A stretch of 64,000 nucleotides of DNA from Planctomycetota bacterium (lineage in GTDB: Bacteria > Planctomycetota > SZUA-567 > H5-PLA8), in NCBI GenBank assembly GCA_038227045.1, contig JBBRQD010000002.1, positions 88,343-152,342 on the forward strand, read 5' to 3'. Of the stretch, positions 45,923-60,283 are shown piece by piece (positions within the stretch are counted from its first letter, which is position 1; every line of letters begins with the position of its first letter). A program made the translations under genes and the position numbers. Under the pieces are notes generated by a model. It was not told the origin of the DNA. It saw only the letters and a program-made list of their open reading frames with translations, and ran no database searches.

Positions 45923-46234
45923 TTACGCAATTCCCGTGATCTTGACCACGGTGTATTGCGTGCGGTGTCCGCGGCGGCGGCCGAGGCTGTTCGTTCGCAC
46001 GCGGTGATGCGCGATCGTCTTTTCGCCTTTGGTGTGCTCCACCACTTCGCCGGTCACTTTCGCGCCGGCCACGTTGGGGCTGCCCACTTTGATCGAGCCG
46101 CCATCGCCGCCGACCAGCAAAACGTTGTCAAAGGTTACCGTCGCGCCGACATCTTCGATGCGCTTGTCCAATTGGATCAAATCGCCCGTCGATACCTTGT
46201 GCTGCCTGCCACGGTCGTTAAGAATTGCGTACAT
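45923..46234 (-). CDS. rplU: 50S ribosomal protein L21
   Basis: MYAIL..GRQHKV..GD, VLLVG, GAKV, RRRGHRTQYTVVKI. Confidence 0.93.
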   Translation of the reverse strand: MYAILNDRGRQHKVSTGDLIQLDKRIEDVGATVTFDNVLLVGGDGGSIKVGSPNVAGAKVTGEVVEHTKGEKTIAHHRVRTNSLGRRRGHRTQYTVVKITGIA

Positions 46235-49200
46235 AGTCATCTACCTCGCTTACTTTCTTGAGAACCCAGTCGCCGCCTTCTTTGGCGATCGACACCTGCA
46301 TCTGGCTCAACGCGACACCCGGGTCCCCACAGACCTCAATCGTGATTCCGTTGGCTTCTTCCATGCGAACCAATTCTTTGCGGAACTGGTTCAGTATCCC
46401 ATAAGCCACGTGCGAATTCAAGAGCACCTTGACTTTGCGCAGCGTTTTGTCGCGCACCTGCGCCTTGATTTCACGCAACATTTCCAGCCCGATCGATTCG
46501 GGCGATTTGATATGCCCCGATCCCGAACAGTGCGGACAGCGGTCGAACAGCGTCTTTTTCAGGCTGTGGCGGATGCGCTGGCGCGTCATCTCCACCACGC
46601 CCAGCGAACTGACCGGCAGCACGTTGATCTTCGCCTTGTCGCGCGCCAGGAACGATTTCAATTCGCGCTCGACCTTGCGTTTGTGCTCGGAGATTTCCAT
46701 GTCGATGAAGTCGATCATCACCAACCCGCCGATGTCTCTCAGCCGCAGTTGCCGCGCGATTTCGCGCGCCGCTTCCAGATTGGTCTGAAGAATCGTATCG
46801 TCCTGGTTGCGCTTTTCGCGGAACCGGCCGGTGTTGACGTCGATGGCCACCAGCGCTTCGGTCTGCTCGATGACGATCGAACCGCCGTTCTTCAAATTCA
46901 CTTTGCGGTTGAACAGCCGCTGCATCTGCTGTTCGACGTTGTAGCGGTGGAAGAGCGGTTCCGATTCGGAATAGAGCTTGAGTTTCTTCTCCGAACCGGG
47001 CGAGGTTTCGCGCAAAAACTCGCGCGCGCGCTCCATGACAATCGGGTCGTCGATGACGATCTCGGTGACGTCTTCGGTGAGGACATCGCGGAACACGCGT
47101 GTCACCACGTCGCCTTCCTGATAAATCAGGTTCGGTGCCTTGCTCGTTTTGGTCTTGTCCTTGAGCGCGTTCCAAGCGCGCATGAGGTATTCCATGTCGC
47201 GCTGCAATTCGTCCTTGGTGCGGCCCATGCCGGCGGTGCGCACGATCACGCCCATGTCGTCGGGCGGGTTGAGCTGGCTGAGCGCTTCCTTCAACGCGCG
47301 GCGCTGCTCTTCGCTGTCGATGCGCTTGGAGACGCCCAGGCGGCTGACGGCGGGCATCAGCACCAGGTAGCGGCCGGGCAGGCTGATGTACGTCGTCAGC
47401 GCCGGACCTTTCTGGCCAATGCCTTCCTTGGCAACCTGTACGAGCACTTCCTGGCCTTCGCGCAACATTTCTTGAATCGTGTAGCGGCGATCGTAGACGC
47501 GATCCTTGCGGCCGTTGTTCTTGCGCACGTGCGGCGCCGCGGGGCTCGGACGCGGTGGCTCGGTTCCAGCAACGGCCGGCGCAATGGCTGCGACGGGTTC
47601 GAACGACTTTGTGATGATTTCGGAGATCGACGCGGTCACGGACTCATCGGAATCCAAATGCGGCGCACCTTCATCTTCTTCCGCTCCTTCCGGGGTCTGG
47701 ACGGCAGCGTGCGAACGCGTCTGCGCCGCTTGTCCGTCTTCATTCACATTCTGCCCGGCATCGGTGCCTTCTTGCTCAGACGCGGCTTCTCCGGACGCGG
47801 GAACGGGCTGGTGTTCTTCGTCCTCTTCGAGCTGATCGGCCAATTCGTCCGCGCGATCCATGCGGTCGGTCATATCGTCTTGCGACGCTGGAGCACTTCG
47901 CGACGTTTCAGTTTCGGCGCCATTGGATGCACGCGCCGCTTCGTCTGCTGCGTTTGCAATCTGGCGAGCTTCTTCCGGTGTGTGCGGAGCGGCGGCGGAC
48001 TCGTCTTCTTGCTCTTCGTCCTCGTCGTCGTAGGAGTCGTCTTCATCGTCTTTGTCCGAATCGTCTACATCGTCCGGTTCGGTGTCATCTACGCTGCGGG
48101 AAGCCGTTTCATCCTGCGCCCGATCCGGCTGACCGGTTTTCGCGTCGAAAGCTTCTGGCGCATCTTTCGAAGCATTTTCAGAATCACCGTCGGGCTGATC
48201 GATTTCGGGTGTCTGCAAGTTTGATTCAACGACGTGCGCCGGAATATCGCTTGGAGCGCTGTCCGGTAATTCGTTCGAGGCGGCGTGACATTCGGATGCA
48301 ATATCGTGAATCTGCGCGGCAGCCTCTTGCGGTGCTTGAGTGGGTTGAGGCTGATCCGAATGCGACACTTCGCCTTGCTCCGGATTCTGTTGATAACCCT
48401 TGGACTGCGGCGCGAGCATCGGCACCGGTCCGCCCCCTTGCAGGCCTGGGCTTGGGCGTGCACGGCCGGAACGTCCCCGGCCTCCACGGCGTCGGCGGCG
48501 GCGCTTGCTGTCGCGATTCTGATTTTTGGCGTCAAATCCAGGCTGCCCCGGAAGGATCGGCATGGGCGCATCGAGTTCCGCAGACGCCGGTGCATTCGCC
48601 GAGTGTGCTGCGTCCTGCACAGGCAGTTCCGCTTGCGACCCGGCCAAAGCGCTTCCCGCCGGCGCGTTTAATTCCAAAGGCATGTCTGGAGCAGGCGGCG
48701 GGGAGAATGCGGGAGATTGCGGCCGCCCCGGTCCTGAATGTCCTGAATAAGGTGCCGACTGGCGAGGCGATGGGCGTGCGGGCCGATTCAAGAGCAAAGG
48801 GCCGTCCGCTACGCTGCCGGAAACTCCCGGTGTTTGAATGAAATCGTCGGACAGGGCCGGAGACGGGTTTCGGGCGGCGAGCACCGAGGGTGGTGTCGCG
48901 CCTTTTTCGCGGCCCTCTCTGTATTGATCGCGAGAATCGCGCGATTCGCGGTGTTCGCGTTGCGGACGCGGGTTCGAATCGCCGGGCTTGTCGAACTGAC
49001 GCTGGCGGCCCTTTTCGTGTGCCTTTTTATCGAGCACGTCGGCGTAGCCGCCGTTGGGCGGAATCACGTCGGAGGCATGCAAAAATCCGTTGCGTTCCGC
49101 GCCGAGGTCGATGAATGCCGCCTGCAACGACGGCTCGACATTCACCACTCGCCCCTTATAGATGTTGCCGGCTTGCTGATGATGACTCTTGCGCTCCATG

Positions 49201-50606
49201 AAAATCTCGGCCAGTTCGCCGTTTTCAAGAATCGCGACGCGGATTTCGCCCGGTTCGGTCGAATTTAGCAGCACCACTTTGCGCACGGTGGACGGTGCAG
49301 ACTGCGGCGCCACCGTCGAGCTTTCATAGGTCGATTCGCGCCAGTTGCGCGAGGTCTTTTGGCGCGGATGCGACGGCGCACCCGCTCTTCCGATGGGCGC
49401 TTGATTTCCGTCCCCTTTGGGGACAAGAAAAGGCGTCGCGAACGCAGGGGCCGCTTCACTTTCCGGCATGTCCGTCGTCAAGGTGGCTGGCGTGTGCGCG
49501 CCCATGTCGGGTGCAGCCGGACCGCCGCTCTCGACCACTACCACGGCATCGTGCCCCACATCGATGGCGTCCATGCAAGCCACGGTCGGTGAATCGTGCT
49601 CGTAAACGCCGGCTGATTCATCGGCCATCGACTCGGCATAATTGCCCCGCTGGTCGGGGCCTTCCTCAACGCCGACTGGGGACGGATGCGCCAAAGTTTC
49701 GAGCGCCGACGCGGAGGGAAGCATCTCTTCGATAACTTGTTCGTTGGGAATGGGCACGCTAGACTCAGAGCCGAAACTCGACAACTCGATGGCTGTCGCG
49801 GCAGCTTCGTGAATTTCCGGTGCTGAAACGGACACTTCAGAAGCGTCCAAAGTATTGGCAACGCGCGCTGGAATGAATGCTTTGGGATGCTGGCCTGGAC
49901 GCCCCTGAGCAAATGGGAAAGCGGGTGCTTCCGACCGTGCCAAGCCCGACACAGGGACATCTGGCGGAACGGCCGCGCCGGCCACATGCGGCCCCGGCGA
50001 AGCGCTAGACTGCGCCGGATGAACGCTCGGCGGTACGGAATGAACGGTGGCTGGTTTCATGGGTTGATGGTTGTGCCGCTGCATTGCGCGCGAGCTGTCA
50101 CGGTCCTGGCGAGGCTGCGCAGAATTCGGTTTGGATTGAAAATGACCCGGGGGCGTGTGCGGGCCTGATTGTGGAAGGCCGCCGCGATTACGATCTCTGT
50201 CCTTGCCACCTTGCCCCTGTCCCTGTTGCCCTGGAAGGGGGCGGTCCCGATCGCGGCCACGCCGCCGGCGGCCGCGGTTCCGATCGCCTCTGTCAGTCCG
50301 GTCGCCTTTGCCACCGCCCTGATTTGTATAGGGCGGCTTGCCTTGAGTTGGAATGAAACCGCCGCGATGGCCCTGCTGGCTCTGGATAATGTTTTCAACA
50401 ATCTGTCCGGCGCGCCGCGCGGCAATTTCATCGGCTTCGCGATCGTCGGGGGAAAGCTGCGGCAGCGCAGACGGCGCGACAGGAGCGACGGGGTGTTCAG
50501 CGCCCTGCGCGCGTTGCGGAAGTTGCACATGTGCAGCCGCATTGTGCCTCTCATGCGCCGAACCTGCTGCGGATTCGTTTTTGGGGTCGTTATTCGTAGC
50601 ATTCAT
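46218..50606 (-). CDS. rne: Ribonuclease E/G with very long N-terminal and intra-S1 low-complexity regions (~1460 aa)
   Basis: GNIYKGRVVNVEPSLQAAFID, GFLHASD, VLVQVAKE, TEALVAIDVNTG, LRDIGGLVMIDFIDM, CPHCSGSG. Start uncertain: first ATG after the TIGR03936 stop chosen, although the frame is open to 51182. Confidence 0.9.
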   Translation of the reverse strand: MNATNNDPKNESAAGSAHERHNAAAHVQLPQRAQGAEHPVAPVAPSALPQLSPDDREADEIAARRAGQIVENIIQSQQGHRGGFIPTQGKPPYTNQGGGKGDRTDRGDRNRGRRRRGRDRDRPLPGQQGQGQGGKDRDRNRGGLPQSGPHTPPGHFQSKPNSAQPRQDRDSSRAMQRHNHQPMKPATVHSVPPSVHPAQSSASPGPHVAGAAVPPDVPVSGLARSEAPAFPFAQGRPGQHPKAFIPARVANTLDASEVSVSAPEIHEAAATAIELSSFGSESSVPIPNEQVIEEMLPSASALETLAHPSPVGVEEGPDQRGNYAESMADESAGVYEHDSPTVACMDAIDVGHDAVVVVESGGPAAPDMGAHTPATLTTDMPESEAAPAFATPFLVPKGDGNQAPIGRAGAPSHPRQKTSRNWRESTYESSTVAPQSAPSTVRKVVLLNSTEPGEIRVAILENGELAEIFMERKSHHQQAGNIYKGRVVNVEPSLQAAFIDLGAERNGFLHASDVIPPNGGYADVLDKKAHEKGRQRQFDKPGDSNPRPQREHRESRDSRDQYREGREKGATPPSVLAARNPSPALSDDFIQTPGVSGSVADGPLLLNRPARPSPRQSAPYSGHSGPGRPQSPAFSPPPAPDMPLELNAPAGSALAGSQAELPVQDAAHSANAPASAELDAPMPILPGQPGFDAKNQNRDSKRRRRRRGGRGRSGRARPSPGLQGGGPVPMLAPQSKGYQQNPEQGEVSHSDQPQPTQAPQEAAAQIHDIASECHAASNELPDSAPSDIPAHVVESNLQTPEIDQPDGDSENASKDAPEAFDAKTGQPDRAQDETASRSVDDTEPDDVDDSDKDDEDDSYDDEDEEQEDESAAAPHTPEEARQIANAADEAARASNGAETETSRSAPASQDDMTDRMDRADELADQLEEDEEHQPVPASGEAASEQEGTDAGQNVNEDGQAAQTRSHAAVQTPEGAEEDEGAPHLDSDESVTASISEIITKSFEPVAAIAPAVAGTEPPRPSPAAPHVRKNNGRKDRVYDRRYTIQEMLREGQEVLVQVAKEGIGQKGPALTTYISLPGRYLVLMPAVSRLGVSKRIDSEEQRRALKEALSQLNPPDDMGVIVRTAGMGRTKDELQRDMEYLMRAWNALKDKTKTSKAPNLIYQEGDVVTRVFRDVLTEDVTEIVIDDPIVMERAREFLRETSPGSEKKLKLYSESEPLFHRYNVEQQMQRLFNRKVNLKNGGSIVIEQTEALVAIDVNTGRFREKRNQDDTILQTNLEAAREIARQLRLRDIGGLVMIDFIDMEISEHKRKVERELKSFLARDKAKINVLPVSSLGVVEMTRQRIRHSLKKTLFDRCPHCSGSGHIKSPESIGLEMLREIKAQVRDKTLRKVKVLLNSHVAYGILNQFRKELVRMEEANGITIEVCGDPGVALSQMQVSIAKEGGDWVLKKVSEVDDYVRNS

Positions 50607-50650
50607 AGAGGGGCCAGACGTGCCATACGTGCTGGATGTGGATGCCGCCG

Positions 50651-51403
50651 CTAGTCGCGCGTCGTCGTTTCGGGATACGACATTGTCTCGAGCAGGCTCG
50701 CCGCTGTCGCGCGCGGATTCGGATCCGGAGGCGTCGTCGCTTCCGCCGTCGCCGTCGGCGGAAAACAGAGATCCATCCGCGTCTTCGTCACCCGCACCTT
50801 CCTCAAATCCTCCAGCGGAATCCCCATCAGCAGGCTTAACACCTCGAGGGGTCTTGCCGAGCCGCTTTGGCTTGGCCGCACCTCGATTTCCAGGTCGCCC
50901 GGCGGCACCGGGTTTAGCGCCAGCAATGCGGGTCGTAGATCGACGCTTTGCACCCGTTTTTCCCTCTGCCTTTTGAAGGGCAGCGTCGTCGCCTGCAGCA
51001 GCGCCTGAATCATCTCCGTCGTCGGAATCGGAATCTCCGCCTCCTGAAGATGAAGCAGGTAATGAATCCGTTCCGGAATCCTCCCCGCTCTGTTCGGAGG
51101 CATCTCCCGAACCGCCGTCAATTCCAAACCCGGGGGTAAAACGAACGCCAGACGGCGTAAAACTTCCTCTGTGTTCAACCATTGATTGAATTCGATTTCC
51201 GCCACTTCATCCAGCGAGGCCACACCCACTTCAAGCGCAACTGGAAATACGATACGGGGCCGGGGATTGAAGCCCTCGGTCAACCGTACCGGCAGACCAG
51301 CCCGGCGCACTGCGCGCATCATCGCGCGCATCAAATCGTGATGGGATATGAAGCGTACAGCCTCACCTTTTTGGAAGCGGATTTCTACCTTTTGCTGGAT
51401 CAT
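50651..51403 (-). CDS. TIGR03936/DUF2344 radical SAM-associated protein
   Basis: RFQKGEAVRFISHHDLMR..RRAGLP..TEGFNPRP...ALEVGVAS..E, VDLRP. Usual position upstream of rne. Confidence 0.9.
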   Translation of the reverse strand: MIQQKVEIRFQKGEAVRFISHHDLMRAMMRAVRRAGLPVRLTEGFNPRPRIVFPVALEVGVASLDEVAEIEFNQWLNTEEVLRRLAFVLPPGLELTAVREMPPNRAGRIPERIHYLLHLQEAEIPIPTTEMIQALLQATTLPFKRQREKRVQSVDLRPALLALNPVPPGDLEIEVRPSQSGSARPLEVLSLLMGIPLEDLRKVRVTKTRMDLCFPPTATAEATTPPDPNPRATAASLLETMSYPETTTRD

Positions 51404-51825
51404 CGCGCCGCCCCGCCTTGCTTGAACCCAAATAAGGGCGGGCCTCGATCAAAATTCGTTTTTGAGAGGCGTAAAGCGCAAGAGACCTGATTTTTATGTA
51501 CCCACCGCCAGCCAGCTCGGGACAATCCCGAGTCTCACAAATGCCATTGCGGGCCGAATTTCGCTAAAAAACTTTTTTCTTCACCGCGGATAGTATTCAC
51601 GGGAATTACACTCATTATAACTTCGAGCCGTGGAGAACGCAACACAATTACCGCAACCACAAGGGGTAAAAATCCAGGAACTTCAATCGGTCAAAAGCCG
51701 TTATTGGCATGAACTTGGAAAAATCGCGCCAAAACACTGCGTGGCATGTATTATCCCGGGGCAGCAATGGTTAGGAGAGCAAACTGAGAAAATCAGAACA
51801 GCATGAAGTTCAATTTAAAATATTT

Positions 51826-51856
51826 AATTCAATATATAATATTTATATATTGAATT
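51826..51856. promoter_or_regulatory. Perfect 14-bp inverted repeat in an AT-rich divergent intergenic region (operator-like)
   Basis: AATTCAATATATAA-TAT-TTATATATTGAATT. Confidence 0.5.
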
Positions 51857-52249
51857 TCTATCTAATATTTTTAAACTACACATGATATTTTTAGTGGAGT
51901 GACAAAAAAACTAAATCTAATCAATCCACATTGCCAATTGTGCCGCAAATAGTCAGTCCATGGCAATGCCCGAACTTTCGCTTTAATCTCATGTGCAGCA
52001 ATTTTACGTGCCGCTTAAATCGTACAAAGTCAATCAAAATAATATATTGCGATTCATGTTTTGACCATAATATAGAGCGGTCACACAATTTTTTGTAAAA
52101 TTACCGCAAACAAATTATTATATGGCACGCCATCCCGCTCAGCGACTAACAGCCTGACGAAGGTTTAGAGCATTTAAAAGTAAATAGAGCGCGTTTGAAG
52201 CAAGCAATGCCATTTTATGACAGCATACCCTTTTTTGAGAGCATAGTTT

Positions 52250-52828
52250 ATGAGAAACAAGGGATTTACGCTGATTGAATTGATGATTGTCGTGGCAATT
52301 ATTGCGATAATCGCGGCCATTGCAATTCCGAATTTGCTGCGCGCGCGCTTGGCGGCGAACGAAACGTCGGCAATCGCCTCATGCAAATCGTTTGCGACCG
52401 CTGAAAACGTTTATCGCCGAACGGATTACAATCACGATGGCATCCTCGAATATTCAAGAGCCCTCTCGGGTGCCAACAGCCTCTTCGAAAACACCTCCGG
52501 AGCCGGCGATGTCGTGCTGATCGATCGCAGCTTCGCATTGGCCGAAGGCTCTCCGCTCTCGACTGCCATTCCTAAAGCCGGATATGTCTTTAACGTCATG
52601 ACGTCACAGGGTCCAGCCGCGCCGGGCGGCGCTCATTCATACATCGATAACAAAGGCCGCATGACTCTCGGATACGCCATGGGGGCGACGGCCAATCAAT
52701 ACGATGGTTCCGGCCGCAACACCTTCGTCATCAACGAAGCCGGAACGACGTATCAGACCGATCAGGGTGTGTCTGGCACGCCGCCAACTGTCTTCAAACC
52801 CAATACTCTCTGGCTCATCGCGGAATAA
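52250..52828 (+). CDS. Type IV prepilin-like protein (DUF2950-like C-terminus)
   Basis: KG|FTLIELMIVVAIIAIIAAIAIP cleavage/methylation motif. PKAGYVF, YDGSGRNTFVINEAG. Confidence 0.9.
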   Translation: MRNKGFTLIELMIVVAIIAIIAAIAIPNLLRARLAANETSAIASCKSFATAENVYRRTDYNHDGILEYSRALSGANSLFENTSGAGDVVLIDRSFALAEGSPLSTAIPKAGYVFNVMTSQGPAAPGGAHSYIDNKGRMTLGYAMGATANQYDGSGRNTFVINEAGTTYQTDQGVSGTPPTVFKPNTLWLIAE

Positions 52829-52857: not shown

Positions 52858-52882
52858 GGCCGCCATTATGGCGGCCTTTTTT
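52858..52882 (+). terminator. Intrinsic terminator of the prepilin gene
   Basis: GGCCGCCA-TTA-TGGCGGCC followed by T6. Confidence 0.8.
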
Positions 52883-53055: not shown

Positions 53056-54867
53056 TCACCACGCCTTAAATTCGTCGCGCTCCGCCATCGATTTATAGAC
53101 CGGCTTGCTTTCAAAAACAATCGATTTGAGCAATTCCTCCGCCTTCTTCCGCTGTTCGGTAGACAGAGGTCCATACGCCGGCCGCGCCATTTCCATTCCG
53201 CTCGATTCACACCAGTGCAGATAATTGACCAACGCCTCAGCCGTTTTGAGATTCTTGAAATAAGAGACGTCTTGGTGCACAAGCAAATACGTGGTTCCTC
53301 GGATCGGATAAGGATCCTCAGCCGCAAGCACGCGGGCAACTGCAAACCGGGCCGCTTTGACGCTTTTGTCGTTGGACGGTGCCTGAACCGAAGGTTGCTC
53401 TTTTTCGGCAAACGCAAGCTCAACGTACCCAATCGCTCCATCGACATTCGCAACGATCCAGGCAACACCCTCGTTGCGCTCGCCGGGCGCCCCGATAGGC
53501 CATTTAGTCGCCACCGCGCCGACATTTTTTCGCCACTCTTCGCTGACACCCGCCAAATAATTTGTAAAGTTTCTCGAAGTGCTCGTGTCATCGGACCGGT
53601 GCACCACCACGATATGTGACCTCGGAAGTGTCATGCCGGGGTTTAGCGCCGCAATTTTGGCATCGTTCCACGACTTGATCTTGCCCAGGTAAATTCCCGC
53701 GAGCGTCGGGCCGTCGAGCTTTAAATTCTGCACCGATGGCAAATTGTAGATGGGCACCACCGCCGTCGAAACGGTCGGTATCTGCAAGATTTCCGGAGCC
53801 GTCTTTAACTCGCTGTCCGTCAGAGGCACATCGGACACGGCGAAGTGCGCGGTGCGCGCCTTCAGTGCCTTGATCCCGCTCACATTTCCAGATCTGAAAT
53901 TGGCATGGATATCAGCGTGCGCTTTGTTGTAAGCGGTTGCCCATTCGACATGCAGCGGCGCGGCTAAAGTTGCGCCCGCGCCTTGAACCGCAATGACTTC
54001 AGGCGCGGCATTCGGCGGATTGGATGCGACTTTTTGAATTGGCGATTCCGCTCGGCTCAGCACCAACGCCTCGCGCAGCGTGCTGCGAAATTCCGGAATC
54101 TGCAGCGTCTTTCGATACCGTTCATTCGTCGCCGGCACCTCGCGCGCGAGATAATCCTCCAGCGACGGAACCGTGATCTCCCCAGCCACATCCCGCGCCG
54201 CGCCGCCAAGCCCCTGAATAACCACATGATAAAAAACGCTGTTCCACAACAATCCGGTCTCGAACGAACCCTGCCCTCTCGAGCACCCCAAGAAAACCGC
54301 GCAGCCGCTCGGAAGTTCGGGCTCGGCGGGGTTCACCGCGCTCAGCGGGCGCGCGTCGGTGGGATCGTTGCGGCACGCGTCGATCAAAATCAGTTTGGTC
54401 TTCGCTTTGCAATTCGTCTTCAGAATCCGAAAGAGTTCTTCCAGCGAAAACAGCGACGCGGTGTTATCGAGCGTGGAATCGATGGGGCAGAAGAAAATTC
54501 GGCCGTCGCGTTTAAATTGCACGCCATGTCCGGAGTAAGCGATCAAAACCGTATCCGCGGGCGTGGCATCGGTGCAAAGCTTTAACATCGCCGCGCGAAT
54601 GTTCGCCAAGTTGGATTGAAATTCGTCCGATTTCTTTTCACGCGCGGTCTGCCCGCACAGAATCGCGATATTCTCCGGCGCGAAGTCGAGCGTTTTCAAT
54701 GCCGCGGCAAGCCCGTGAATATCGTCTTCGCAGAACCACAATTGATGCAGCCGGGGATCGCGGCATTCGCGCGCCCCGATGAGCAACGCCAACCGCCGCC
54801 CATCCTCACTCCGCGCACATACCCCGGCCAACACAAGCACGCAGGTCACGCATGCACGGCGAAACAT
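53056..54867 (-). CDS. Exported caspase-like peptidase (C14) fused to a degenerate PstS-like domain
   Basis: Signal peptide MFRRACVTCVLVLAGVCARS. RLALLIG, YSGHG and IDACR dyad. Then GAGAT, AVSD, IYLGKIKSWND, VVHRSD, GAIGYVE, YPI. Start could be 54894. Confidence 0.85.
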   Translation of the reverse strand: MFRRACVTCVLVLAGVCARSEDGRRLALLIGARECRDPRLHQLWFCEDDIHGLAAALKTLDFAPENIAILCGQTAREKKSDEFQSNLANIRAAMLKLCTDATPADTVLIAYSGHGVQFKRDGRIFFCPIDSTLDNTASLFSLEELFRILKTNCKAKTKLILIDACRNDPTDARPLSAVNPAEPELPSGCAVFLGCSRGQGSFETGLLWNSVFYHVVIQGLGGAARDVAGEITVPSLEDYLAREVPATNERYRKTLQIPEFRSTLREALVLSRAESPIQKVASNPPNAAPEVIAVQGAGATLAAPLHVEWATAYNKAHADIHANFRSGNVSGIKALKARTAHFAVSDVPLTDSELKTAPEILQIPTVSTAVVPIYNLPSVQNLKLDGPTLAGIYLGKIKSWNDAKIAALNPGMTLPRSHIVVVHRSDDTSTSRNFTNYLAGVSEEWRKNVGAVATKWPIGAPGERNEGVAWIVANVDGAIGYVELAFAEKEQPSVQAPSNDKSVKAARFAVARVLAAEDPYPIRGTTYLLVHQDVSYFKNLKTAEALVNYLHWCESSGMEMARPAYGPLSTEQRKKAEELLKSIVFESKPVYKSMAERDEFKAW

Positions 54868-54959
54868 CGAAAAGCCTCCTGACTTCGAACTCATTGCGAA
54901 CAAGACTATCGAAATGAATGCGGATAGGAAAGCATGTTTTCGTACCGTATTTCGAATCT

Positions 54960-55847
54960 TTACCCGCGCACGCGCGGCGTCGGCTGCATTAAAATCGGCG
55001 GCGCATTCGTATCTTCCGCGGTCAGGCCGTTGAACATGCGCAGTTCGCCGATGGCCTGCTCGGTGGTCTCCACGCTGCGGGCGGCGTCGTCCACTTCGCT
55101 GGTGATCATGGACGGGTCGTGGCGCGCGACCATCATCTCCGAGAGCGCCGCCACTTTCGACGCGATCCGCGCGAGTTCGAGCTGCACGTAATCCAGATTT
55201 TCTTTCGCGTGATGAAGATTCTCTTTCCGCGCCAGCGCCGACTTGAGCGTATCTTCGACGCTCTTGCGCTTCTTGATCGTGAGATCGTCCTCGGCGGTTT
55301 CGGGGAGTTCAAGCAACTTGCTCTTGGCGGCTTCTTCCAACGCGATGATTTCGCGCTCATCGGTCGATTTTAGAAATTGCAGCAGCGCGCCGTGAGTATG
55401 CAGCAATTTTAAAAACACCCAGAGCATTCGATTGACACCCTGCAACTGGCTTGCGGCGATCTTGTCGATGCCGCCTGAATCGGCGATGTCCGATTCGGAA
55501 ACGCCGGCAGAGCGCATCGATTCGCAGCGGTGTTTTAAAGCATCGAATCGGTCTTTCGATTCCTTGCTCAACCCCATGTACAGCGTATTGAAACGCCGCG
55601 TCAATTCCTCCGACGAGCGCGAGTTCTCTTCGTTGCCGGCTTGTGAATTGACCAGGCGGCGAAAGCGGTCGTTGCCGACCATGGCGGCCAGCAGCGTCAA
55701 CTCGCCGGCGGCAGCCAGCACGAAAACGACCTCGCGGATGCCCGGCGAAAGAATCGTCGCGCCCGCGGCGCCGAACAGATATAGCAAGTTCCAATGCTGC
55801 AAGAACGCCGCCTTCAAATAGTCGCCAAAACCCCTCGGTTCCGACAT
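54960..55847 (-). CDS. Two-TM coiled-coil hypothetical protein
   Basis: MSEPRGFGDYLKAAFLQHWNLLY..., two TM segments, then a long helical region. Confidence 0.75.
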   Translation of the reverse strand: MSEPRGFGDYLKAAFLQHWNLLYLFGAAGATILSPGIREVVFVLAAAGELTLLAAMVGNDRFRRLVNSQAGNEENSRSSEELTRRFNTLYMGLSKESKDRFDALKHRCESMRSAGVSESDIADSGGIDKIAASQLQGVNRMLWVFLKLLHTHGALLQFLKSTDEREIIALEEAAKSKLLELPETAEDDLTIKKRKSVEDTLKSALARKENLHHAKENLDYVQLELARIASKVAALSEMMVARHDPSMITSEVDDAARSVETTEQAIGELRMFNGLTAEDTNAPPILMQPTPRVRG

Positions 55848-55870
55848 TGATTGCTCCGCAATGTTTGTTC

Positions 55871-55920
55871 GGAGTTCAGGCTTTAGCCTGCACGCGAAAA
55901 CAGCCTGAAGGCTGAACTCC
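55871..55920. repeat. REP-like inverted pair
   Basis: GGAGTTCAGGCTTTAGCCTG...CAGCCTGAAGGCTGAACTCC. Confidence 0.75.
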
Positions 55921-55952
55921 AAACTTTTTAATCCACCATGCTGAAATACGCT

Positions 55953-56822
55953 TCAAATCACCCCTGCCTCGGCTTCCATCCGCTGAATTTTCGCGCGAAT
56001 ATATTTGACCCGCTCCGCGAATTCCGGCAGTGCTTGCGATTCCACCGCCGGCAGGGTCGGTCTCGGCGCAAACGACTCTTCAATGATCGTGCCCGGCGCA
56101 TTTGAAAACAAATAGATCCTATCGCCGAGGAAGACCGCCTCCTCAATCGAATGCGTCACAAAAAAAACAGTCGCCTCCGTCTTCGCCCACAGCCCGATTA
56201 ACAAATCCTGCATGCGCAGCCGGGTCATCGGGTCCAGCGCGCCGAACGGCTCATCCATCAGCACGATGCGCGGATTCAAGATCAGCGAGCGCGCGATGGC
56301 TACGCGCTGGCGCATTCCACCCGAAAGCTGATGCGGGTATTTTAACGCGTCGCGCGCGGGATTCAATCCGACGCGCGCGATCCACTCCGCGGCCTGTTCA
56401 TGGCGTTCGCCGCGCGGAACTCCCCGGCACTCCAGCCCGAAGGCGACATTGTCGAGAACCGTGCGGTTGTCGAACGCGGTATACTCCTGAAAAATCATCC
56501 CGCGGTCGGCGGTCGGGCCGGTGACGCGTTCGTTGAACACGAGCACCTCTCCGGATGTCGGCGGATGCTGTGGTTCAAGTCCCGCGATCAGCTTCAATAA
56601 CGTGCTCTTGCCGCAGCCCGATGGCCCAATGATCGCGACCAGCTCGCCCACGCCGACAAGATCCTCGACCTTAAAGGTGACGTTCTGGATCGCGGTAAAT
56701 TCGCGCGCCGTGCCCGCGTTATATTTCTTGGTGACATTTCGAAATTCAACGACATGCGGGCGCGCAAGCGCGGTCGTGACAGGAGTCGCGGAGGCGGCAT
56801 CAGTGGGCGGAGAATTTTCCAT
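55953..56822 (-). CDS. ABC transporter ATPase (NitT/TauT family)
   Basis: GPSGCGKST, LSGGMRQR, VLMDEPFGALD, VTH. Confidence 0.93.
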   Translation of the reverse strand: MENSPPTDAASATPVTTALARPHVVEFRNVTKKYNAGTAREFTAIQNVTFKVEDLVGVGELVAIIGPSGCGKSTLLKLIAGLEPQHPPTSGEVLVFNERVTGPTADRGMIFQEYTAFDNRTVLDNVAFGLECRGVPRGERHEQAAEWIARVGLNPARDALKYPHQLSGGMRQRVAIARSLILNPRIVLMDEPFGALDPMTRLRMQDLLIGLWAKTEATVFFVTHSIEEAVFLGDRIYLFSNAPGTIIEESFAPRPTLPAVESQALPEFAERVKYIRAKIQRMEAEAGVI

Positions 56823-56846
56823 GGTGTCCGAGACGCAGCCTCTCGA

Positions 56847-57644
56847 TCAAGATTCGGTATACGGAAACAGCCAGCGTTGCACAGCGAAAAAGATACGGTC
56901 AATGGTGTACGCCGCGAGCGTAATGGCGACAAGAATTAGATAAATGTGTGCCCGTGGGCCGATGCGTTGCGAGATGTTGATCAATTTGCCGACGCCGTAT
57001 TCCGCGTTGATCAATTCGGCGAGAATAATGTAGCCGAATGCCAGGCCGCAGAGCAGGCGTAGCGACGCTACGATATCCGGCAAAGCCAGAGGTATCAGCA
57101 CCTTGAAAAACGTCTGCATCTTCGACGCGCCAAGTGTAAGCGCGGTTTGAACATACTGTTCCTGAACTTTGGCCACGGCATGTGCAGCGTCGTAGACAAT
57201 GAACATGACACAGGCGATGAAGATAAACATGATCTTCTGCAATTCATCTGTGCCGAACCACAACAGCGTGAGTGGCGCCAGCGCGGAGATTGGCACATTT
57301 CTACCGAAGACCGACACCGGCATGAAGAACGAATGAATGCGCGGCCAGGCGCCGCAGACCACGCCCAGCGGCACGCCGATTAATGCGGCAAGACCAAAGC
57401 CTTCGACCACTCGAACAAGCGACGCAACGAGATTGCGCGAGAGTTCGCGTTCGAACCAAAGCTCTTTGAACGACGCGAGCGTCTCGACGGGGCTCGGCAG
57501 AATCACCTTCGAAATAAAACGATCTTCAGACTCCTTGCCCAGCGTCAACAGCGTCCAGATAGCCAGCAGCGCAAACAGCGACGCGGCCCCGGCCCCGATG
57601 CGCCATTTGACTGTCGGTTCTTCCCGTAATTTAAAGAGATTCAT
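56847..57644 (-). CDS. ABC transporter permease (NitT/TauT family)
   Basis: True start MNLFKLRE at 57644. LPSP, ALTLGAS (EAA loop), IILAELI, GVG. Confidence 0.9.
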   Translation of the reverse strand: MNLFKLREEPTVKWRIGAGAASLFALLAIWTLLTLGKESEDRFISKVILPSPVETLASFKELWFERELSRNLVASLVRVVEGFGLAALIGVPLGVVCGAWPRIHSFFMPVSVFGRNVPISALAPLTLLWFGTDELQKIMFIFIACVMFIVYDAAHAVAKVQEQYVQTALTLGASKMQTFFKVLIPLALPDIVASLRLLCGLAFGYIILAELINAEYGVGKLINISQRIGPRAHIYLILVAITLAAYTIDRIFFAVQRWLFPYTES

Positions 57645-57682
57645 TGACAGGACTCGTTTGTTGACTTGTGTCCAACTTGCAT

Positions 57683-57917
57683 TTGACCCCAGCAGGGGTC
57701 GAAGATGGTAGCCGGGGGTTGAGACCGACAGGTCGATACCCCCGGACAAATCGAAAAAAGACCCTTCACCCCGGCAGGGGTGACAGAGGGATTCTCGCGA
57801 TCCCCGCGAATTTCTCTGCGACCCCTGCCGGGGTCGAATCAATCTACGCACTTTTTCCGGGGGTGTCGCGCTTCGCGCTAACCCCCGGCTACCTTCTTTG
57901 ACCCCTGCCGGGGTCAA
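57683..57917. mobile_element. 235-bp MITE/REPIN-like element with 37-bp terminal inverted repeats and four ACCCC-N4-GGGGT palindromes
   Basis: Left end TTGACCCCAGCAGGGGTCGAAGATGGTAGCCGGGGGT matches the reverse complement of the right end with 3 mismatches. No transposase. Confidence 0.7.
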
Positions 57918-57926
57918 CAAATCCAA

Positions 57927-59657
57927 CTACTGCTGCTGTTCCAACGGATAAATCTTAATCTCCACACGCCGGTTCTTGGCGTGGTCCATCGGATTGGCGG
58001 GGTCGGCGGGCTTATCCCAGCCCATGCCGATCGTGCTGATCTGATTCGGCGGAATCGACGGATATTTGGCCAGCAGCGACTGCCGAACCGAATTCGCCCG
58101 GCGCTGCGACAGATCTTTCACGGCGCTGTCAGGCACCTGTCCGCGCATCGATCCGTCGGTGTGTCCTTCGATGATGATGCGGCAGGCGCCGAATTGTCCG
58201 GACATCTTCGAAATCTCGTCGATCGTAAAATCGGCTTGCGGATCATACAGTTCATCCAGCGTCTTGCCGTCGGCATCCTTGCGCGCAATCCTGTATTTGA
58301 GATCGGCGCTATTCGGGAAAAAGCGGATCACGACGGTCTTCGTCAGGATCTCGCTCGACTCGGCTTTGATCGACGACACCGTCTTCGGCACGAAATTGAC
58401 GATGTACTTGTTCTGGCTCTTGGCGTACTTCGGCTCCTTGCCAAGTCTTTCGATAATTGAAAAATCGGCGACTTGATCGAAATCGACTTTGCTGCCGACT
58501 TTCAGCACCGTCTTATAAAGATAGTAGGCGTTGTCCCAGGTACGTTGAAAATTAGTCGGGTTGTTCGAATTCATAAGAAATTCGGCGTTCTCCGCATAGT
58601 TGGTCCAGTGCGCGTCGCCCAGCATGCCTTGTGCGTCGGCGGGCGGCAGCGAGTAACCGTCGGCCATGTGCTTCGCCGCTATGGCCTGTTTGTCCTGCGC
58701 CTCCAGCTCATCGACGGAGTCGAGAATTCCGCGCACGATGCCTTCAACAATTCCCGGATTTTCCTTGGCAAAATCAGCGCGCGCAAACCAGACGTCGGCA
58801 ATCAAATGATTGGCATCGTGAGACGTGACGAGCATCTTGTTGCCTTTGATTTTTTCAAGATTGTAAATATCCGGCGACCACGACACGCATGCTGAAATCG
58901 ATTTGTCCGCAGCAAAGGCCGCCGCCGCCTGAAAAGCATCGCCAGTAAACTTGAATTTTACTTCGGACGGCTGAATGCCACCGTTAATGAGTGCGTTGAG
59001 AATGAAATATTGCGACGGCGAGTTCTGGGCCAGAGCGATGGTCTTGCCGCGCAGGTCGCTGATGCTCTTGATTGTATCGCGCACGACAATGCCGTCGCCG
59101 CCGTTCGACCAATCGATCTGCTGATAAACGCGCGGCATGGTGCGCGAATCATTTTTCAATTCGTCGATCAACAGCGGCAGCATGTCAACGGTCGCCCAGC
59201 CGATGTGCACGTCACCTGACGCGTACGCGTCGCGCATCGCCACGGGATCGTCGATGAGCACGAGCTCTACTTTGAATTTCGAACCATCCGGCGCGGTCCA
59301 TTCTTTCTTGGGCTTGAACCCCTCATTGGCATAAATAATCGGCGCCCAGCCTGCCCACACATTCAAGGCGAAACGGACGGTGTTGTTCTGCATCTTTTTG
59401 TACGCGGCCACGCCCTTGACCGGCGGCAGTTTCTCAGCCGGGACATAATCGTATTTTTTCGCAGTCAATCCGGTATTGGAATCCGCCGCTTCGACTGCGG
59501 ATTTACCGTCGGCGTTCGGCGTCACGATCGCCGGCGCGTTCTTTGGAAACAGAATATCCGAGCGATAGACTGCATAGCCCACCAACGCCAATACCACTAT
59601 CACAACCGTGAAGTAAAAAAGCGGCTTGGGTTTCCCCGGTTCCACGTAGTCGGACAT
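57927..59657 (-). CDS. Membrane-anchored NMT1/SsuA-like solute-binding protein fused to an OmpA-like peptidoglycan-binding domain
   Basis: CAGGAG RBS and one N-terminal TM. WAGWAP, DWSNGGDGIV, VSWSPD. C-terminal EGHTD, LSQRRA, NRRVEI. Confidence 0.88.
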   Translation of the reverse strand: MSDYVEPGKPKPLFYFTVVIVVLALVGYAVYRSDILFPKNAPAIVTPNADGKSAVEAADSNTGLTAKKYDYVPAEKLPPVKGVAAYKKMQNNTVRFALNVWAGWAPIIYANEGFKPKKEWTAPDGSKFKVELVLIDDPVAMRDAYASGDVHIGWATVDMLPLLIDELKNDSRTMPRVYQQIDWSNGGDGIVVRDTIKSISDLRGKTIALAQNSPSQYFILNALINGGIQPSEVKFKFTGDAFQAAAAFAADKSISACVSWSPDIYNLEKIKGNKMLVTSHDANHLIADVWFARADFAKENPGIVEGIVRGILDSVDELEAQDKQAIAAKHMADGYSLPPADAQGMLGDAHWTNYAENAEFLMNSNNPTNFQRTWDNAYYLYKTVLKVGSKVDFDQVADFSIIERLGKEPKYAKSQNKYIVNFVPKTVSSIKAESSEILTKTVVIRFFPNSADLKYRIARKDADGKTLDELYDPQADFTIDEISKMSGQFGACRIIIEGHTDGSMRGQVPDSAVKDLSQRRANSVRQSLLAKYPSIPPNQISTIGMGWDKPADPANPMDHAKNRRVEIKIYPLEQQQ

Positions 59658-60283
59658 TATGTATTTCTCCTGAGTGTTTGCCTGGCACGGCCAATCGAAT
59701 GATAAGTTCGCTAAATCTGTCGTTATATCTCGCATAGACGCAAGGGCGCGAAGAAAAGCAAGAAGGTGGCGGGTTCCAGTTCGGACCAGAGCAGGAAGCA
59801 TACATTTTTTCGCGAATCTCGCCATTGCATTTCGTTTGTCGCGATTGATTTCGATTCCAACGCCCCATTTTACCATAACCCTATAAATGCCGATGCAACG
59901 GCCACAATCGGACGAGATATCAGCCTGAATAGTTGCAGAATCTCGTCAATGCACTCTTGCCTAATTTATTGCCAATCCGCGCTTTACACCTGCTGTGCCG
60001 ACAAAACGATGGTCCATTCTGCATGGTCCGTTCTTTGCTGTTTACAGATTGTTCTTAAGGCGCGGTTTTCGCAGCCAAGATGGGGGCCGAGTGTAAATAA
60101 CGCACAATTCTTCATCCTGCGTAATTGATTTATAGCATCGATCATTTTGACGAAGTAGGCGGTCTGCGGATGCGGATCGTAACGGGCTGCTTCTGCGGCC
60201 CATTTTAATTTTGATCCCCGGTCCATTGTGGAACGGGATTAAAAAGCCACAAATGACGCATACCTGTTTTAGGAGCAACCAAG

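Follow-up and report, generated by a model that had tools for sequence, protein, structure and literature searches.

In a window of 64,000 nucleotides (the whole stretch of DNA analysed, positions 88,343 to 152,342 of contig JBBRQD010000002.1, assembly GCA_038227045.1, Planctomycetota bacterium), a gene on the minus strand encodes a caspase-like protease joined to a domain derived from PstS, the phosphate-binding protein of bacterial phosphate uptake. The frame, read directly, is uninterrupted over 603 codons (53056..54867, minus strand). The ATG at 54867 was taken as the start because an AGGAGG sequence lies 7 nt upstream of it and because it agrees, in the alignment, with the N-termini of the close homologues P0002 and P0003; a TTG codon at 54903, 36 nt upstream of this ATG, would allow a possible extension. 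The features of the gene are the following.

53056..54867, minus strand: complete coding sequence of the caspase-PstS fusion, 603 aa and a stop codon, with a start common to the homologues
54875..54880, minus strand: Shine-Dalgarno sequence AGGAGG, with a 7-nt spacer to the ATG at 54867, read directly
54811..54867, minus strand: signal-peptide-like N-terminus, residues 1-19 (MFRRACVTCVLVLAGVCA, then RSEDG), by direct reading; modelled as a helix over residues 2-17 with low predicted local distance difference test (pLDDT) values
54064..54798, minus strand: Peptidase_C14 domain, residues 24-268, by Pfam, profile matches to metacaspases and MALT1, and Foldseek match to MALT1
54526..54528, minus strand: codon of the catalytic His114 (SGHG), invariant in alignments A1 and A3
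54373..54375, minus strand: codon of the catalytic Cys165 (DACRND), invariant in A1 and A3, as is D163 two residues earlier
53992..54063, minus strand: inter-domain linker, residues 269-292, where pLDDT drops to 58-61; spanned by an 859-nt contig
53059..53991, minus strand: PstS-derived Venus-flytrap domain, residues 293-603, by PBP_like_2, TIGR00975, alignment with 1IXH and Foldseek
53875..53895, minus strand: remodelled first ligand loop, residues 325-331 (R-S-G-N-V-S-G for Q-x-I-G-S-G-G-G, one residue shorter), by alignments
53575..53601, minus strand: remodelled second ligand loop, residues 423-431 (HRSDDTSTS for HRSDGSGTS), by alignments

The preliminary description of this gene, made from its sequence alone, had proposed a signal peptide followed by a C14 domain and a PstS-fold domain. 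The two domains were borne out by Pfam and NCBIfam, and the export signal by direct reading. Peptidase_C14 (PF00656) matched residues 24-268 with 62.7 bits (cutoff 21.4, E 5.2e-17), and PBP_like_2 matched residues 286-540 with 109.4 bits (E 3.6e-31). Among the NCBIfam models, the protein scored above the cutoff of the PstS equivalog TIGR00975 (224.3 vs. 205 bits) and below those of the enterobacterial PstS model NF008171 (189 vs. 339) and of the EACC1-associated caspase NF047832 (52 bits vs. 140); no EACC1-type neighbour was found among the Pfam-scanned neighbouring genes. The N-terminus, with RSEDG after its hydrophobic stretch, reads as a Sec signal peptide, and a leader of similar kind is present in all 6 aligned fusion homologues.

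The AlphaFold2 model, built on a 51-row alignment, has a mean pLDDT of 87.3 and a predicted template modelling score of 0.75. Both halves are confident, and the weak regions are limited to the leader, residues 174-178 and the linker around 278-280. Foldseek matched the C-terminal half to E. coli PstS (E 4e-26, template modelling score 0.70 on the target) and the N-terminal half to the caspase domain of MALT1 (E about 4e-12), which agrees with the caspase-hemoglobinase fold of C14 peptidases. The confident fold and the Foldseek match to PstS dispose of the concern, raised beforehand, that the PstS half might not fold. A complex prediction of the caspase half with the PstS half scored 0.24, against a mark of 0.32, and speaks neither for nor against an inter-domain interface.

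The His-Cys dyad expected of the protease half is intact. H114, within SGHG (residues 112-115), and C165, within DACRND (residues 163-168), are invariant in the 6 full-length fusions (alignment A1) and in 17 of 17 caspase relatives (alignment A3), in which D49, D163 and E203 are invariant too. The A3 profile matched the metacaspases Mca1 of Candida/yeast, TbMCA2, AtMC4 and AtMC9 at E values of 3e-11 to 3e-7 and MALT1 at 9e-6, and it aligned D49 with the Asp of the metacaspase 'xND' motif ('nD'). By analogy with TbMCA2 and MALT1, we take D49, D163 and E203 to be acidic positions of an S1 pocket like that of Arg/Lys-specific enzymes; the protease is probably Arg/Lys-specific at P1. Together with the leader, these features point to an exported (periplasmic or secreted) C14 cysteine protease akin to bacterial metacaspases and orthocaspases, which we infer to be proteolytically active. 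Arg173, at the disordered 174-178 stretch, was considered as an autoprocessing site and dropped, as an invariant Pro comes next.

When 1.84 billion representatives were searched exhaustively with phmmer, 8776 of them matched the caspase half. Among the best 73, scanned against Pfam at E <= 1e-6, the C-terminal modules included FGE-sulfatase (17) and TPR (9); Sel1 with or without PDZ, PDZ alone, S41/TSP, beta-helix, EF-hand, LGFP, DUF4189, DUF6807, PQQ_2, HEAT, Tudor-like and a second C14 were also found, and many had no second Pfam domain. PBP_like_2 occurred in one of these 73 (P0005 only), and a purpose-built PstS hidden Markov model detected a PstS domain in one of the best 150. Prokaryotic metacaspases are described as modular in PMC3501461, including an FGE-sulfatase fusion and leader-like N-terminal helices, and PMC7517822 describes orthocaspase N-termini on binding proteins of cyanobacteria with C-type-lectin C-termini diversified by diversity-generating retroelements (DGR).

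The genus is rich in caspases of this sort, as two further loci illustrate. On contig C572 of genome G001, at about 10.6-27 kb (partly covered by L102), six caspase matches lie within ~16 kb in frames of 239-654 aa, which looks like an array of paralogous secreted caspases. The window genome itself carries a second leader-bearing caspase gene (L003, 783..2657), directly followed by a separate gene with an FGE-sulfatase domain (FGE by reading); the pair would be a split form of the common caspase-FGE-sulfatase fusion.

Before the PstS half is considered, the reality of the fusion has to be established, as the window genome, from a sediment planctomycete, is a metagenome-assembled genome of 285 contigs and a singleton or an assembly chimera had been named as what would overturn the proposal. 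Five more fusion clusters emerged when 5.8 billion protein clusters were searched with a word index, namely P0002 (94% identical to the window protein), P0003 (85%) and P0004, P0005 and P0006 (46-48%); the next matches were stand-alone PstS proteins only, at most 47% identical to the C-terminal half. One further GTDB representative genome, a planctomycete metagenome-assembled genome, holds the full fusion (L004), and a scan of JGI metagenomes yielded two more loci (L028 and L029) of the P0005 type, which is the L004 type, and missed P0006. Within the genus of the window, three of four genomes carry the fusion: the window genome (G000), G001, where a single 617-aa frame of contig C567 contains the caspase match and, contiguous with it, the PstS match, and G003, whose contig C457 holds a seventh copy cut by the contig end. 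The fusion was not found in G002, which is 86% complete, nor was the caspase half found in 57 genomes outside the genus at E <= 1e-20. Contigs from two sediment runs, belonging to a study other than the likely source, cover the gene, and one of them, an 859-nt contig from a ~94% identical relative (positions 53598-54456, 55 differences), crosses the domain junction. With an uninterrupted frame, the same architecture in seven independently assembled proteins and a junction spanned in another study, an assembly chimera or a frameshifted gene pair has next to no probability left.

We then compared the phosphate site with that of E. coli PstS. In the HMMER alignment with 1IXH (E 2e-52), five ligand residues are kept (T10 as T300, D56 as D346, R135 as R424, D137 as D426 and T141 as T430). 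F11 is replaced by L301, the GSSGG loop by G327-N328-V329-S330-G331 with one residue deleted just before it, and G138-S139-G140 by D427-T428-S429. About 18 residues are absent opposite E. coli residues ~206-250. All the residue assignments of the preliminary description were correct on this alignment, and the shortened C-lobe that it had noticed corresponds to this deletion.

The extent of the change becomes apparent from the stand-alone proteins, a set of 116 made up of 115 database matches and the window genome's own PstS. F11, S38, G41, D56, R135, D137, S139, G140 and T141 do not vary in any of the 116, and a glycine occupies the E. coli S39 position in 115. The seven fusions compare as follows (E. 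coli numbering).

F11: L, Q or P; canonical in 0 of 7
S38: N, G or A; canonical in 0 of 7
S39 position (Gly): V, L, F or Q; canonical in 0 of 7
G140: S, N, Q, L or A; canonical in 0 of 7
G138: D, E, P or A, acidic in 5 of 7; canonical in 0 of 7
S139: T in five, H in one, S in one; canonical in 1 of 7
R135: lost to P, P and L; canonical in 4 of 7
T141: P in one; canonical in 6 of 7
D56: unchanged; canonical in 7 of 7

The three cleft glycines (S39 position, G138 and G140) are thus bulkier in every fusion. Stand-alone PstS has 64 columns that are conserved at 95% or more; 18 of these persist in every fusion, and 12 do so in no fusion at all. The fusions also share novelties of their own, since Q34 has become R or H and Y33 has become F or H in all seven, and position 40 is Ser/Thr in six; deletions of 18 to about 42 residues vary among the members. 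Because the new residues are common to the whole family, the changes look like re-specification of the site and not like random decay. Given the loss of R135 in three of seven, the bulkier cleft and the acidic residue at 138 in five, what the family conserves is not the binding of anions at the original site. A phosphorylated ligand larger than phosphate, of the kind put forward in the preliminary description, is not favoured, given that bulkier residues have taken the place of the cleft glycines; an altered anion site around the new R/H at position 34 is possible.

This comparison bears directly on the alternative that the PstS half of the window subclade (P0001-P0003) is a genuine sensor of phosphate or of a close oxyanion (e.g. 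arsenate), in which flytrap closure would switch the protease on or off and so link periplasmic phosphate to proteolysis. The equivalents of T10, D56, R135, D137 and T141 in the window protein, the hydroxyl still borne by T428 and a TIGR00975 score above the equivalog cutoff are what such a sensor would be expected to show. Against it, S38, the glycine of the S39 position, F11 and G140, invariant or nearly so in the 116 stand-alone proteins, are changed in all seven fusions; the first ligand loop has lost a residue, position 138 is acidic in five, R135 is lost in three, and the NF008171 score (189) falls well short of its cutoff (339). On balance we regard phosphate or oxyanion sensing by the window subclade as unlikely.

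The origin of the PstS half could be traced within the genus. Contig C23 of the window genome carries a canonical pstS followed by pstC, with the site intact (GAGATFPAP, IGSGGG, SD, HRSDGSGTS), and its product is the nearest stand-alone relative of the window fusion half (51% identity). In a tree of 66 rows (the seven fusion halves, six canonical PstS of the genus, and P0007-P0059 out of the 115 stand-alone matches), the fusion halves form one group with a Shimodaira-Hasegawa-like approximate likelihood ratio test (SH-aLRT) value of 100 and branches of 0.39-1.25, as compared to 0.13-0.4 for the canonical PstS of the genus. The canonical orthologues of the genus are 70-77% identical to that of the window genome, and the fusion halves are 39-51% identical to it (39-40% for those of G001 and G003). 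The single group, its long branches and the low identity to canonical PstS indicate that the planctomycete caspase-PstS fusion arose once and that its PstS half evolves much faster than the transport receptor.

Fast evolution and variable deletions could also mean that the PstS half has no ligand and serves only as a structural part of a constitutive protease, for example as a pro-domain or intramolecular chaperone, as a spacer or as a scaffold for anchoring. The bulkier cleft of all seven members, the ligand arginine lost in three, the deletions of 18 to about 42 residues and the long branches are in line with such an appendage. Codon changes argue otherwise: between the window and the ~94% relative of run X2, the PstS half shows 15 synonymous and 7 non-synonymous changes (22 codons), and the caspase half and the linker show 5:4 and 1:3, respectively, in a comparison that classified 40 of 79 differences and involved one relative only. 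These counts fit continuing purifying selection on the PstS half. Moreover, 18 of the 64 strictly conserved columns, D56 included, are kept in all seven, and the residues new to the family (R/H at 34 in seven, Ser/Thr at 40 in six) look like re-specification and not like decay. A purely structural role seems to us quite unlikely.

Divergence from the X2 relative is uneven along 53056..54903. The 5' part of the caspase region has 9 differences in 538 nt, and the region of the linker and the PstS domain has 55 differences in 859 nt and another 18 in 257 nt, which suggests either faster change or recombination in the PstS half.

The genomic surroundings were examined for a partner of the fusion. 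The gene is the last of five on the same strand, after genes for an NMT1/SsuA-like binding protein with an OmpA domain, a permease, an ATPase (the ATP-binding cassette (ABC) operon at 55953..59876) and a 320-aa protein; the gap between the fusion and the 320-aa gene is 56-92 nt, and the next gaps are 30 and 24 nt. On its other side it is convergent with a pseudopilin-like gene (52250..52828, N_methyl and DUF2950). The short gaps on one strand, and the lack of a terminator-like site between the genes beyond chance expectation, would suit an accessory of the adjacent transporter, either a processing protease or a second binding protein. However, the ABC genes and the 295/320-aa gene recur in G001, G002, G004 and G005 with no fusion beside them, the next gene being instead a convergent TonB_C gene in G001 and a TatD gene in G002, and the G001-type fusion L004 has different, unrelated surroundings, with genes of the opposite strand on either side. 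For this reason we rejected an involvement in the adjacent ABC operon and give it very little probability. No partner gene is conserved across the compared fusion contexts, so that the fusion behaves as a self-contained unit. Neither pstC, pstA nor pstB adjoins it; next to it lie an ABC system of the NMT1/SsuA type, which is unrelated, and a gene without a recognised family. A scan for promoters and terminators gave counts at the shuffle expectation.

Some neighbouring genes deserve a brief description. The binding-protein gene (57927..59876, minus strand) encodes an NMT1/SsuA-like domain with a C-terminal peptidoglycan-binding OmpA domain and an N-terminal hydrophobic segment, and weakly matches TIGR03427 (putative urea-transporter binding protein); its product would be a wall-anchored binding protein. 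The gene at 54960..55922 (minus strand) belongs to a type of 295-320 aa with predicted membrane segments and a coiled-coil tail, which matches no Pfam or NCBIfam family. It lies directly 3' of the ABC ATPase gene in G001 and G002, and by sequence in G004 and G005, and may be an uncharacterised accessory of that transporter. Further away, 46218..51182 (minus strand) encodes an RNase E/G homologue of 1654 aa, whose catalytic domain (1267-1630) follows ~1250 low-complexity residues rich in Pro, Gly, Ser and Asp. The intergenic stretch 51400..52250, upstream of the pseudopilin-like gene, has a low G+C content of 0.42-0.47 as compared to ~0.57 around it. Between the pseudopilin-like gene and the convergent fusion gene, at 52858-52876, the sequence forms a strong hairpin that has a T-run.

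A search of longer proteins with the PstS half as query revealed a second set of caspase-PstS proteins (P0299, P0352, P0357 and P0359; 686-727 aa), with a signal peptide, Peptidase_C14 and PBP_like_2. SGHG and DACR are intact, and a linker of ~100 aa separates the domains. Their caspase halves are 21% identical to that of the window (E 3e-4), and the PstS half of P0299 is E. coli-like, matching 1IXH end to end with 385 bits. All nine ligand positions are canonical in P0299 and near-canonical in the other three: S38, D56, R135, D137, S139 and G140 are kept in four of four, and T141 in two of four. The low caspase identity, the E. coli-like PstS half and the long linker together show, at the level of sequence, a separate fusion event. 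In the ESM Atlas, a cluster of 77 members has both domains in 100% of them, and Pseudomonadota is the commonest phylum (phylum known for 12 members); the Pseudomonadota label of the P0299-type fusions derives solely from this cluster.

The Atlas gave leads to other combinations, namely clusters of C14 with SBP_bac_11, of C14 with SBP_bac_8, and of CHAT with PBP_like_2 (303 members, mostly Cyanobacteriota). In metagenomes, other fusion partners of PstS-type domains are histidine kinases, Ser/Thr kinases, Cache domains and a 7tm_3 receptor, and in Thermoproteota the PstC permease (P0353, P0360, P0365, P0368, P0371, P0363 and P0377). PstS thus appears to have been reused as a sensor module.

The preliminary description did not recognise the architecture as characterised. 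This holds in so far as no functional study was found, and needs amending in so far as the architecture is already tabulated, in one row that pairs Metacaspase with PBP_like_2 in a table of PMC4933709, and forms the 77-member Atlas cluster. Beyond this row, the literature search, which covered titles and abstracts, returned no fusion of C14, metacaspase or CHAT with PstS. The caspase-PstS architecture is therefore catalogued yet uncharacterised, and what is new here is a rare, independent planctomycete origin with a re-specified pocket.

Taking these results together, we consider it somewhat more likely than not that the window protein is an exported protease in which the PstS-derived module serves to sense or recognise something, though not transported phosphate. 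A duplicated planctomycete pstS would have been fused once to this caspase lineage; its product, freed from the duty of a Pst receptor, would have kept its fold under purifying selection while the phosphate pocket was rebuilt. The transport role is covered elsewhere, as a canonical pstS-pstC pair with an intact site is present on contig C23. Within the protease, the PstS-derived module would most likely be the part that provides recognition or regulation, and the binding of a ligand or target other than transported orthophosphate may direct or gate the cleavage of extracytoplasmic substrates. Such a role would parallel the one plausibly played by the FGE-sulfatase/lectin-like, TPR, Sel1 and PDZ modules of the sister caspases. 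The ligand-gated protease of the preliminary description, responsive to an anionic ligand other than phosphate, is a plausible form of this reading; in view of the TPR, Sel1, PDZ and FGE-sulfatase modules found on the sister caspases, a target-recognition module fits as well as a gate.

Several points weigh against this reading. The signal peptide was judged by eye from the sequence, the S1-pocket assignment follows residue roles in TbMCA2 and MALT1, the tree came from a quick IQ-TREE search, and the codon counts cover about half of the differences from a single relative. No conserved gene in the neighbourhood points to a substrate. The window subclade (P0001-P0003) keeps T10, D56, R135, D137 and T141 together with a hydroxyl at 139, and residual phosphate or oxyanion binding by its members is possible. 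Finally, the canonical or near-canonical site of the P0299-type family hints that phosphate itself can be the signal for this architecture. Since a caspase joined to a phosphate-type PstS has been selected in an independent family, with all nine ligand positions canonical in P0299, the combination is credible, and phosphate or oxyanion sensing is the chief rival to a module that recognises something else.

A broader reading, which we offer tentatively and hold to be improbable on present evidence, is that fusions of caspases with periplasmic solute-binding domains constitute a convergent class of extracytoplasmic ligand-gated proteases, as the two independent C14-PstS origins and the other Atlas combinations would suggest; the window family would be a version whose pocket has been re-tuned to a new signal and goes on diversifying fast. 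If so, this family would be a sensor of a variable external cue, such as a molecule derived from a competitor, a phage or the envelope, and not of a nutrient. To our knowledge, bacterial caspase homologues are abundant and almost none has a known trigger or substrate, and a binding domain of well-understood fold offers a handle on the trigger of such a protease. A comparison of the two families could show whether small molecules gate proteolysis outside the cytoplasm and how a transport receptor is turned into a domain for sensing or targeting. One consequence is practical. The PstS half passes the TIGR00975 cutoff, and its relatives are named phosphate-binding or substrate-binding proteins in their sources, so that such fusions can inflate the counts of phosphate-uptake genes in metagenomes.

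With respect to known systems, the protease half shares the His-Cys dyad with metacaspases, orthocaspases and the paracaspase (TbMCA2, 4AFR; Yca1, 4F6O; MALT1, 3V4O; MaOC1 of Microcystis; profile E values of 3e-11 to 9e-6), and it has, as Arg/Lys-specific members do, an Asp two residues before the Cys and more invariant acidic residues, which would line the S1 pocket. These proteins are cytosolic and have other accessory domains or none, whereas the window protein bears a leader. The DGR-diversified cyanobacterial orthocaspase proteins described in PMC7517822 likewise join a caspase-type protease to a fast-changing C-terminal binding module; that module has a different fold (C-type lectin as compared to PstS), and no retroelement was seen at the window, where no search aimed at one was made. 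E. coli PstS (1IXH, 2ABH, 9K3S) has in common with the C-terminal half the Venus-flytrap fold and the equivalents of T10, D56, R135, D137 and T141. In contrast to it, the window protein has a protease in front, is not encoded next to pstCAB, changes the equivalents of F11, S38, S39, G138, S139 and G140, and has a shorter loop and the ~18-residue deletion. The nearest caspase domains (35-44% identity) are those of planctomycete proteins in which the caspase is combined with FGE-sulfatase, TPR, Sel1 or PDZ (for example P0140, P0148 and P0142); these too have an N-terminal hydrophobic leader and a C-terminal add-on, which in the window protein is instead derived from PstS. The Pseudomonadota-type fusions (P0299 and its relatives) have the same order of domains, and differ in their separate origin, their longer linker and their canonical or near-canonical phosphate site.

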